From Escherichia coli (GTDB taxonomy: Bacteria; Pseudomonadota; Gammaproteobacteria; Enterobacterales; Enterobacteriaceae): DNA of 64,000 nucleotides. Below are positions 12,001-15,000 of the stretch, in pieces (position 1 is the stretch's first letter; the number at the start of each line of letters is the position of its first letter). Location of the stretch: assembly GCF_001677475.2 (NCBI RefSeq), contig NZ_CP015229.1; one strand, written 5' to 3'. A program made the position numbers.

Positions 12001-15000
12001 GGACAGGTTTTCAAAACTAAAATAAATGAAGATAACACTTCAGACTATTCCATAGCTATATTTCCTTTCACCACTTCATTGAATACTCTGGATCCATTAA
12101 TACTTAATCAGGAATTAGTGCAAAACATTTCGAATAAAAAAATCGATGGCCTTTATACCTATCCGATGGCTGCGACAAATTTTTGTAATGATCACATATC
12201 GCAAAATTCATTTTTGAGAAGATTCAAGCCAGATTATTTCGTTACAGGAAGAATAAACCAGAATAACGCGGTGAAAACTTTATACATTGAACTGATCGAC
12301 GCTAAAAATCTTTTCCTCATCGCCAGTAATCATCTTCCTGTTGATGAACTACATAACACATCACAATTTATTATAGATAATATCCTTCAAACGGTACATA
12401 ATCCAGAGCGATCTGTAAGATTAGCTAAATCAGATCAAGGCTACAAGAATCATTATTTATCAGATGAACTGTTGGCTGGTAAGAAAGAACTTTACGAGTT
12501 TACACCTGAAAGCATTTACAGGGCTATGACTATATTTGATGGATTACAAAATAAAAGTGATATACAGACGCTAAAAACAGAATGTTATTGTCTGCTAGCG
12601 GAATGCCATATGTCTTTGGCACTTCATGGAAAGTATGAACTTGAACTTGCTGCTCAAAAAGCATTAGAGCTTTTAGATTATGTATCAGACATAACCACTG
12701 TCGATGGAAAAATTTTAGCTATTATGGGGCTGATAACTGGTCTGTCTGGACAAGCAAAAGTATCTCATATCTTATTTGAACAGGCTAAGATACACTCAAC
12801 TGATATAGCCTCTCTCTACTACTATAGGGCACTAGTCCACTTTCATAATGAAAAAATTGAAGAGGCAAGAATTTGTATAGACAAATCACTACAACTCGAA
12901 CCCAGAAGACGAAAAGCAGTTGTGATAAAAGAGTGTGTAGATATGTATGTGCCTAACCCGCTCAAAAGCAACATGAAACTCTACTATAAAGAAACTTCGA
13001 GTGAAAGCCATCGAGTTATAATTGACAACATTTTGAAACTAAAGCAACTGACAAGAATTTGTATGCGATAAATCTTTATTGTCGCAATTTTATTGTTTAG
13101 ATGTATGCAACTGGTTATTTAAACAACAGAGATGAAAATATCTAAGATATTTACCTTATTGCAATATATATCAAATACTCTAGATTAAAAAGTATTGTGT
13201 ATAGGCTATTGGCCTGGACAAATAAAAAAGGGAACTTTATGACTAATCCAATCAAAATGAATAATTTTTCTCAAAGTTTAAATATAGCAACCGCAACGGG
13301 TGATGAAGTCGTTTCATTAGATAAACACATCACCACCAGTGCTACTGATACAGATCAAATACAAGCATTTATAGTTTCAACATGGATGGCATCTTTTCAA
13401 AATGATATGTATTCGAAAGATAATCCTATCTCTCCTTACTATGAACTGGAATGGTAGACAATTGACCACTTAAATGATTAACGAGATACTGATTATATTA
13501 GTATCTCGTTCCTTTCCTTCAATCCTACACATAAAAATATATGCGCTTACCCAAAGTTAAAATCTTAGCCGTCTTCATGTTTTCTATATTAATTACAAAA
13601 ATGTCTTTCGCCAGTAGCGCTTGCTTTAATGAAGCAGGATCAATTTTCAGAATCGAACCAAATTTGATCAAAGCTATCGCTCTTGTTGAAAGTAATTTAA
13701 AAAATGATAGCATCGGCAAGAACAGGGATAAGAAAAACAATATAAAAAGTTTTGATTATGGTTTAATGCAGATAAACCAGATGCACATTCCCATGTTAAA
13801 AAAACGTGGAATAATAAAAGATGAACGAGATTTGTTAGATAACCCCTGTCTGAACATTAAAATAGGGACCGAGATTTTATATAATCATTTTTCACGTTGT
13901 GGGGTAACGTGGCAATGTCTGGGGACTTATAACGCGGGTTTTGCAATGGAAAACCAAAAAAAGAGGCTGCAATATGCAAAAAAAATATATGTTGTATATA
14001 CCAGACTTAATGAAATAGACAAGCGTAAGGCTTTAGCAAAATGAGCCTAAAGCCTCTTTTTTTTTATATAGTGCAAACGCCCATACGTAAAGCTGTTTTG
14101 ATCAACTCGATACCACTGTGAACATCTAATTTCTTCATGATATTGAGTCTATGAGTTTCGACTGTTTTCCTGCTTAACTGCAAGAAATTAGCGATTTCTT
14201 TGTTTGTTTTTCCATCAGCTATGAGTTGTAGTATTTCAGACTCACGATTTGTAAGTTGATTATCAGAGGAATATCTTGAAGATATTTTTTCACAATCCAT
14301 ATGTACACTATCAAAATAAGTGTAACCATTACTAATCGAATCAATAGCGCGATTTAGTTTCGCCGGGTGACTGGTTTTCCATACGCATCCTTTCGCACCG
14401 GCTTCAAGCAATTTTATTGAATCAATATACGGCATTTTTGCTACAAATGTAATAATATGAGCATCTATTTTATGCGATTTAACCCATTTTATGAGTTCGG
14501 ACCCCATCATTCCACCTGCAAATTCTCCTAAAATAAATATTTGGGCTGCAGATTTGTTACACTCCGCTATAGCTTTCTTCAGATCTTTATAGCCCCCAAC
14601 AACCTCATATAAATCGGGATAATGTCCGAGAAATCCAATTATCCCATCAATCATAAACGGCTGCTGATCTGAAACTACAATTTTAATTTTTCCCATATAT
14701 TCATCCTGAGTGTAAATGCTATAACGCATTCATTTATAATCATCCCTTCCATTATTATTATAAGCAAAATCCAAAGAATACATTGATGAAATAATAATGA
14801 AATATAATTAAAAATAAAATTTTCGCGTAAGCAGAATAACACCAGTGTTGAAAAATCATTAGGCGTTTAAAATATTAGGATTAGATTATATTCAAGTCAT
14901 TAAACCGGAGACAATGATCTATAAGTCCTCTGGGTTCGTCAAATCAGAATTATTCATAGCCAAATAATCTATTTCACACATTCTTTCAACTAAATAATGT

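Follow-up and report, generated by a model that had tools for sequence, protein, structure and literature searches.

EtrB is described in the literature as a NarL-family, SsrB-like regulator, and its gene appears in work on type III secretion system 2 of Escherichia coli (ETT2) under the synonyms ygeK, ECs3712, Z4176 and etrB. According to reviews citing Luzader 2016 and Kendall 2010, EtrB interacts with the regulatory DNA of ler and activates the enterocyte effacement locus (LEE), represses etrA and eivF, and is encoded by a monocistronic, positively autoregulated gene that is activated by QseA. Deletion of ygeK in avian pathogenic E. coli (APEC) alters or reduces flagella, motility, adhesion and biofilm. 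Here we show that an open reading frame (ORF) in a stretch of 64,000 nucleotides from E. coli (contig NZ_CP015229.1; the whole stretch is called the window below) encodes YgeK/EtrB, the already characterised regulator of the ETT2 type III secretion island, and that this protein has lost three of the five catalytic residues of a receiver domain, namely the second acidic residue, the phospho-acceptor Asp and the Thr/Ser residue. We also show its fold, the conservation of these losses within its family, purifying selection on the gene, the lack of a kinase gene nearby and its linkage to type III secretion modules. An earlier reading of the window from its sequence alone had proposed that YgeK is an atypical regulator without a phospho-acceptor, a proposal which formal alignment, profile comparison and structure prediction uphold; it had not recognised YgeK as the known regulator EtrB.

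A pseudo-receiver is defined as a receiver in which one or more of the five catalytic residues are missing (Bourret 2025, PMC12632262). About 6% of bacterial receivers are pseudo-receivers and about 4% of receivers are aspartate-less; across the class the first acidic residue tends to be kept, and the second acidic residue, the Pro at position D+4 and the aromatic residue at position K-3 tend to be lost. Since YgeK is without the second acidic residue, the acceptor Asp and the Thr/Ser, it is a pseudo-receiver of the aspartate-less subclass and hence an atypical response regulator, in agreement with the published definition (PMC12632262). Its pattern of losses follows the trends of the aspartate-less class (Maule 2015, PMC4395418; PMC12632262), and it is an orphan without a kinase. 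It differs in having Gly at the acceptor position, where Glu is the commonest substitution of the class, and in a near-invariant Glu at D+1. Neither YgeK nor EtrB is named in the main text of PMC4395418 or PMC12632262, or in four text supplements of the latter, and the missing acceptor is not mentioned in the accessible literature on YgeK/EtrB, in which the original EtrB study was not checked.

Among described regulators, EtrB of E. coli O157:H7 (Z4176/ECs3712/YgeK) is the same gene in the same ETT2 position. The closest curated family is that of SsrB (NF011896), the regulator of Salmonella pathogenicity island (SPI) 2, which matched YgeK over its full length (E-value 2e-40); with 138.6 bits against a cut-off of 242 bits, YgeK falls outside that family. 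SsrB carries the canonical Asp and is paired with a cognate kinase, SsrA, whereas YgeK has neither the acceptor Asp nor a kinase, and its island is of the SPI-1 type and not of the SPI-2 type. The ETT2 literature lists SsrB as a homolog, and both proteins are NarL-type regulators of horizontally acquired type III islands. The solved structures that match YgeK best in sequence and structure, those of RcsB, DesR, VraR/LiaR, EvgA and NarL, share its two-domain architecture and its fold; however, these proteins carry the full DD-D-T/S-K set and are phosphorylated, while YgeK is without the second acidic residue, the Asp and the Thr/Ser. VpsT, CsgD, BldM/WhiI, RedZ and SecR resemble YgeK in joining a LuxR/GerE output domain to a receiver-like domain that is independent of Asp phosphorylation. 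YgeK has no specific sequence relationship with them, and its family has a signature and a genomic niche of its own: the NCBIfam model of CsgD matched only the helix-turn-helix of YgeK (41.7 bits against a 250-bit cut-off), and the fold match to VpsT was weak, with a template modelling (TM) score of about 0.4. By its LuxR/GerE output domain, YgeK belongs to the NarL/FixJ family.

Gene identity and residue assignment in the receiver domain

Over its full 64 kb the window matches the ygeA-to-ygfT region of E. coli 19KM1831 collinearly, at 98-99% identity. In that strain the NCBI Prokaryotic Genome Annotation Pipeline (PGAP) calls the same 633-nt coding sequence (CDS), which lies between a lytic transglycosylase gene (ygeJ, iagB-like) on one side and orgB/orgA/eprKJIH of ETT2 on the other, and the encoded protein is identical to that of the window. 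At least 1000 public contigs encode exactly this protein, which the sources name either 'Uncharacterized response regulatory protein YgeK' or 'LuxR C-terminal-related transcriptional regulator'. The gene and its parts are as follows (aa, amino acids).

14064 to 14696, minus strand: ygeK/etrB CDS, 633 nt including the stop codon, 210 aa, intact in the ORF list
14322 to 14690, minus strand: pseudo-receiver domain, aa 3-125, (beta-alpha)5 fold, from Pfam, AlphaFold2 and Foldseek
14664 to 14669, minus strand: codons of D10 and Q11, the metal-binding 'DD' pair, with the first acidic residue retained and the second lost
14526 to 14528, minus strand: codon of G57 (GGA) at the position of the phospho-acceptor Asp, with E58 at D+1, from alignments and model
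14442 to 14444, minus strand: codon of V85 at the Thr/Ser position, from the ungapped profile alignment, MAFFT and the model
14376 to 14378, minus strand: codon of K107, the conserved Lys, retained and invariant in all alignments
14094 to 14258, minus strand: LuxR/GerE helix-turn-helix, aa 147-201, Pfam GerE E-value 9e-21, matching the C-terminal domains of EsrB, SsrB and NarL
14704 to 14707, minus strand: Shine-Dalgarno sequence AGGA, 7 nt upstream of the ATG at 14696, read from the sequence

The Pfam Response_reg model (PF00072) matched YgeK weakly but end to end (E-value 5.2e-7, 30 bits, model positions 1-110/111). In five pairwise phmmer alignments to solved structures, including DesR, VraR/LiaR and RcsB, D10 and Q11 fell on the acidic pair, G57 on the acceptor and K107 on the Lys. 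A MAFFT alignment of 20 members of the YgeK family with 11 canonical NarL-type relatives gave the same register for D10/Q11, G57 and K107, and placed V85 at the Thr/Ser position. Against a profile built from 107 canonical NarL-type regulators YgeK scored 182 bits; posterior probability was maximal and no gap was opened across strands 1 to 5, with D10, Q11, G57, V85 and K107 as assigned. The corresponding columns of the 107 canonical sequences hold D or E in 105, D in 86, the acceptor D in 97, T or S in 99 and K in 105. Two further canonical columns are altered in YgeK, in which G61 replaces the Pro at D+4 (92/107) and C104 the aromatic residue at K-3 (90/107).

The structure prediction agreed with this register. 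The AlphaFold2 model had a mean predicted local distance difference test (pLDDT) score of 83.5, mostly above 90 in the receiver, and contained five strand-helix units. Its strands cover residues 4-9, 30-36, 53-56, 80-85 and 101-106; with strand ends at S9, L56, V85 and W106, the residues D10/Q11, G57, V85 and K107 are therefore located at the catalytic strand ends. The top Foldseek matches of the model were the receivers of LiaR, RcsB, EvgA and DesR. T83, which the phmmer alignment to DesR offered as the conserved Thr by opening a two-residue gap, was rejected in favour of V85, to which the profile alignment points without any gap; the distance from there to the Lys is constant at 22 residues, and V85 closes strand 4 of the model. 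The Asp residues nearest to G57 are D38 and D78, both of which are outside strand 3. YgeK is thus without the acceptor Asp, the complete DD pair and the Thr/Ser of a canonical receiver, and retains the conserved Lys.

The sequence-only reading had put Gly/Glu at the phospho-acceptor position, and pairwise alignments, profile and model agree on G57 at the Asp position and E58 at D+1. It was equally right about the retained Lys and the retained LuxR helix-turn-helix. Its statement that SDQQ replaces the DD pair holds for the second acidic residue, which is lost (Q11), but not for the first, which is retained (D10), and its description of the pocket was incomplete in that it had missed the replacement of the Thr/Ser by V85, of the Pro at D+4 by G61 and of the K-3 aromatic residue by C104. 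That reading had allowed that its alignment by eye might be shifted or that the true start might lie upstream. The profile alignment located the residue register and left no Asp at the acceptor position. Upstream of the ORF only the ATG at 14729 could serve as a start; it has no well-spaced Shine-Dalgarno sequence and would add 11 residues, all of them ahead of strand 1, and the start Met at 14696 is shared by 20 of the 21 family members compared. The start at 14729 was rejected for its small gain in residues, its poor Shine-Dalgarno spacing and its misfit with the N-termini of the family, and no alternative start codon can supply the missing catalytic residues.

Judged from these residues, phosphotransfer from a histidine kinase to the canonical site of YgeK would be excluded as impossible, because the acceptor, the direct metal ligand and the phosphate-binding Thr/Ser are all lacking.

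The YgeK family and its genomic niche

Relatives of YgeK were collected by a word-indexed search and a profile search of 1.84 billion cluster representatives. The word-indexed search returned about 20 full-length relatives at 48-63% identity, followed by a gap down to at most 36%, where ordinary NarL/FixJ regulators start. In the profile search only three full-length representatives exceeded 180 bits (P0030, P0084 and P0088), and below them a continuum of canonical regulators followed. In all 22 family members the first position of the DD pair is acidic, the second is Q, R or K, D+1 is E or D (E58 being almost invariant), the Thr/Ser position is hydrophobic (V, M, I, F or L, never T or S) and the conserved Lys is present. 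The acceptor position holds Gly in 20 members, Ser in one and Thr in one, and Asp in none. Since these catalytic losses are common to all 22 members, down to 37% identity, they represent an old and stable state.

The family has conserved features of its own in addition to the losses. C46, at the end of helix 2, and C208, in the C-terminal 'GVCTI' tail, are present in 22/22 members, whereas canonical relatives are aliphatic at both positions. W106 and S109 are each conserved in 21/22, P111 is invariant in the 21 members of alignment A1, and a C-terminal tail of the form G-x-C-x-I/L (C208-T209-I210 in YgeK) is common to the family members. The family is defined here by a signature consisting of A/S-D/E-Q/R/K, L-G-E-F, hydrophobicity where canonical receivers have Thr/Ser, V-W-K-x-S-x-P, C46 and the G-x-C-x-I/L tail, together with a gene position between orgB and an SLT/hilA-like pair; YgeK fits on both counts. 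Mean identity in the receiver is 50% within the family as compared to 42% among canonical relatives, and it reaches 80% within the family in the C-terminal segment with the helix-turn-helix (aa 146-210). Several members have no recorded PF00072 match, because the receiver of the family is so divergent from the Pfam model. The conserved C46, C208 and tail could act in redox switching, as a site of interaction or as a degron. Gly at the acceptor position was also seen among the profile hits in unrelated NarL-type regulators (P0129, P0133, P0137, P0171 and P0174), which keep the Thr/Ser, the Lys and the K-3 aromatic residue; the loss of Asp to Gly has therefore arisen more than once in the NarL-type family.

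The neighbours of ygeK in the window belong to a conserved module, as listed here.

11695 to 13071, plus strand: ygeH, HilA-family regulator, member of the conserved module
13541 to 14044, plus strand: ygeJ, iagB-like lytic transglycosylase, convergent with ygeK, member of the conserved module
14885 to 14914, minus strand: candidate promoter-like site (TTGTCT, 18-nt spacer, TATAAT; 10/12 matches) in the 222 nt that separate ygeK from the orgB-like gene
14919 to 15689, minus strand: orgB-like gene, last part of the eprHIJK-orgAB operon, immediately upstream of ygeK, with the same order in L005, L006, L009, L012-L015 and L017

Outside E. coli, an SLT gene and a HilA-like regulator were found beside the ygeK homolog in 10 of 11 loci, the HilA-like neighbour being a Trans_reg_C plus tetratricopeptide repeat (TPR) protein adjoining the SLT gene. 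In eight of these ten loci (L005, L006, L009, L012-L015 and L017), prgHIJK-orgA-orgB are immediately upstream; they are not shown at L003/L004 and L016, and L003 has a glycoside hydrolase 15 gene on that side. The conserved order of the module is prgHIJK-orgAB, ygeK, SLT, hilA-like. Among the same eight loci, ETT2-like modules occur on plasmid-like contigs with ParA/ParB, TraI or Rep3 genes, one module is carried by a 254-kb plasmid of Yersinia frederiksenii (NZ_MT039225.1), and pentapeptide-repeat or leucine-rich-repeat (LRR) effector-like genes are often found beside the modules, which suggests that this type of island is mobile.

No histidine kinase is annotated within the collinear 64 kb, to which the search in this strain was limited, in accord with the earlier statement that the island contains no cognate kinase gene. 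None was present either in the recovered flanks at the 11 homologous loci, which extend at most 10-18 kb per side and at four loci are contigs of 3-8 kb. In the window and at these 11 loci, no cognate kinase is thus encoded near ygeK.

A paralogous clade from cryptic Escherichia and E. marmotae (P0023-P0028; L007 and L008, positions 10001-10633) is located outside any secretion-system island, where it adjoins flhE-flhA-flhB-cheZ-cheY-cheB-cheR and a Rep3_N replication gene. This flagellar neighbourhood is intriguing given the reduction of flagella upon deletion of ygeK in APEC.

The candidate promoter site at 14885 to 14914 is consistent with the monocistronic etrB transcript reported in reviews; the number of promoter-like sites found by the consensus scan was not above that expected from shuffled sequence. 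The convergent ygeJ and ygeK genes are 19 nt apart (14045 to 14063). An inverted repeat, GCTTTAG...CTAAAGC, at the end of ygeJ is followed by a T-run on the plus strand and resembles a shared terminator, although the consensus terminator scan did not call it and called none elsewhere. Another gene of the window, yqeH (6898 to 7530, plus strand), also encodes 210 aa and has a C-terminal LuxR-type helix-turn-helix and a Cys-rich N-terminal domain; it was considered as a possible second pseudo-receiver and set aside, its N-terminus not appearing receiver-like on inspection.

Selection on ygeK in E. coli

Comparison of the window gene with that of O157:H7 revealed 10 synonymous and 2 non-synonymous differences, corresponding to a ratio of non-synonymous to synonymous substitution rates (dN/dS) of 0.05, and comparison with ygeK of K-12 gave a dN/dS of 0.07. 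At the protein level, EtrB of O157:H7 and the window protein are 99% identical, and the only changes, S66A and I69V, are both conservative. Of 5426 complete E. coli genomes, 3485 contained a match to at least 80% of the gene's length with a nucleotide identity of 97% or higher. The ygeK gene is under strong purifying selection within E. coli.

In K-12 MG1655 (L010, 1501-2133), ygeK is a pseudogene by a single change of Q52 to a stop codon. Its SLT, orgB-like and orgA neighbours in that strain carry frameshifts or truncations, with an IS2 element alongside; ygeK of O157:H7 is intact. In the complete genome closest to the window (L001, 24120-25942, syntenic to about 22600-24450 of the window), an SctQ-like gene of ETT2 carries a frameshift, and a secretion gene beside it is truncated. 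The secretion apparatus may be non-functional even where ygeK is intact.

Mode of action of YgeK

The best-supported model, which we consider probable, is that YgeK is active as made and that its output is set by its abundance. According to this model, YgeK would act as an aspartate-less NarL/FixJ-type factor that keeps the (beta-alpha)5 fold, D10 and K107 and has lost the acidic residue at the position of Q11, the acceptor at G57 and the Thr/Ser at V85. The intact LuxR/GerE helix-turn-helix would let YgeK bind DNA in the state in which it is made, probably in dimeric form as for other members of the NarL family, and its activity would presumably be constitutive. Its output would be set mainly by the amount of YgeK, via positive autoregulation and activation by QseA. 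For DNA binding at ler, autoregulation, QseA control and the mutant phenotypes, the model draws on the literature. Control through expression is a recognised mechanism for constitutively active pseudo-receivers (PMC12632262). The sequence-only reading had proposed regulation by abundance or by a ligand; the autoregulation and QseA activation described in reviews fit the former, and nothing in the present analysis supports the latter.

Two sets of observations weigh against this model. Conservation of the protein exceeds what a simple scaffold might require, notably at C46, E58, W106, S109 and P111 of the receiver and at C208-T209-I210 of the C-terminal tail, and it hints at a specific interaction or signal beyond control by abundance. 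Further, the arrangement of the two domains in the AlphaFold2 model is unreliable, with a linker pLDDT below 50 and a predicted TM (pTM) score of 0.61, because of which no 'active-like' conformation can be claimed for YgeK. The domains were arranged closer to DNA-bound RcsB than to closed NarL, and owing to the low-confidence linker this was not used as evidence of an active state.

Other explanations of the degenerate receiver were considered alongside. It is extremely improbable that the missing residues are an artefact, with an Asp truly at the acceptor position or a longer N-terminus that restores them. The weak Pfam match of 30 bits and the two-residue shift of the Thr/Ser against DesR would allow such an error, yet the profile alignment is ungapped at maximal posterior probability across strands 1-5 and agrees with the strand ends of the model, D38 and D78 lie outside strand 3, and an extension of at most 11 residues, with poor Shine-Dalgarno spacing, would end ahead of strand 1. 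It is hardly more credible that the receiver simply decays within a non-functional ETT2 island and that YgeK has no function in this strain. Erosion of ETT2 in many strains, the Q52 stop and frameshifted neighbours in K-12, and the frameshifted and truncated ETT2 genes of the closest complete genome would fit decay; however, the ORF is intact in the window with a dN/dS of 0.05-0.07, the same substitutions are fixed across the family down to 37% identity, the full-length gene persists in 3485 of 5426 complete genomes, and mutants of enterohaemorrhagic E. coli (EHEC) and APEC have phenotypes, by which decay is largely refuted. Phosphorylation at a non-canonical site, either at E58 or D10 in the pocket or at a Ser/Thr as in GlnR, is in our estimate very unlikely. 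D10, K107 and the acidic D+1 residue (E/D in 22/22) do remain in the pocket, and modification of atypical regulators at residues other than Asp is documented. Against this, Q, R or K at the second acidic position removes a direct metal ligand, the Thr/Ser, the Pro at D+4 and the K-3 aromatic residue are all lost, and no partner kinase is encoded nearby. Moreover, Glu is to our knowledge not an acceptor of phosphotransfer in receiver chemistry.

Two alternatives give the conserved receiver a role in signal input, and each is unlikely. The pseudo-receiver could be a regulated sensor of a small ligand, or of redox state via C46 and C208, in the manner of RitR, Hp1021, JadR1, RedZ or VpsT; examples of pseudo-receivers under direct ligand or redox control are documented in the literature. 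The two cysteines, conserved in all 22 members and aliphatic in canonical relatives, and the strongly conserved, family-specific receiver signature would suit such a role; the accessible literature on YgeK/EtrB, however, gives no ligand or redox results. The spatial relation of C46 and C208 cannot be judged from the model, in which the tail has a pLDDT below 50. The c-di-GMP (cyclic di-GMP) motif of VpsT is W[F/L/M][T/S]R. This motif is absent from the YgeK sequence, in which W71 is followed by VKS and W106 by KTS; its absence speaks against a sensor of this kind, and VpsT-like c-di-GMP binding was rejected. The signal could also arrive indirectly through a partner protein, either in a heterodimer with RcsB or another phosphorylatable member of the NarL family, or by binding of a type III chaperone or anti-activator, an idea we rate as doubtful. 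BldM-WhiI, Rem-MirA and RcsB with its auxiliary regulators are precedents for this, and control of pseudo-receivers through partners is documented in the literature. The structural likeness of YgeK is best to RcsB (TM score up to 0.72-0.76), the gene is located in a secretion-system module with a HilA-like regulator in all but one paralogous clade, and the invariant surface residues and the C-terminal tail could form an interaction site. The reviews, on the other hand, report a direct interaction of EtrB with ler DNA. As a tentative extension, with only a small chance of being correct, the pseudo-receiver of the YgeK family may be viewed as a dedicated input module, by which ETT2-type islands, and also LEE in EHEC, would be transcribed in response to a signal specific to the secretion system or to the host. 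Redox state sensed at C46/C208 could provide this signal, as could a small molecule or a partner, for example RcsB, a secretion chaperone or the HilA-like regulator, and the switch would be formed by G57-E58, W106-K107-x-S109-x-P111 and the C-terminal CTI tail.

The gene, its regulatory role and the aspartate-less class were already known. What is possibly new is the explicit placement of EtrB/YgeK in this class, and the delineation of a small, secretion-linked enterobacterial family that shares a constant signature. The switching of pseudo-receivers in bacteria is still presented as an open question (PMC12632262), and YgeK adds one more example of them and no new principle. With no target for phosphotransfer in YgeK, the hunt for a cognate kinase would come to an end and the orphan behaviour of the regulator would be accounted for. 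Experiments would be redirected to the expression level, stability, partners and ligands of YgeK, and the signature provides the residues to mutate, namely the G-E acceptor site, Cys46, Cys208 and W-K-x-S-x-P. This matters for the biology of pathogenic E. coli, as EtrB/YgeK has an input into the expression of LEE in EHEC and, in APEC, into motility, adhesion and biofilm.

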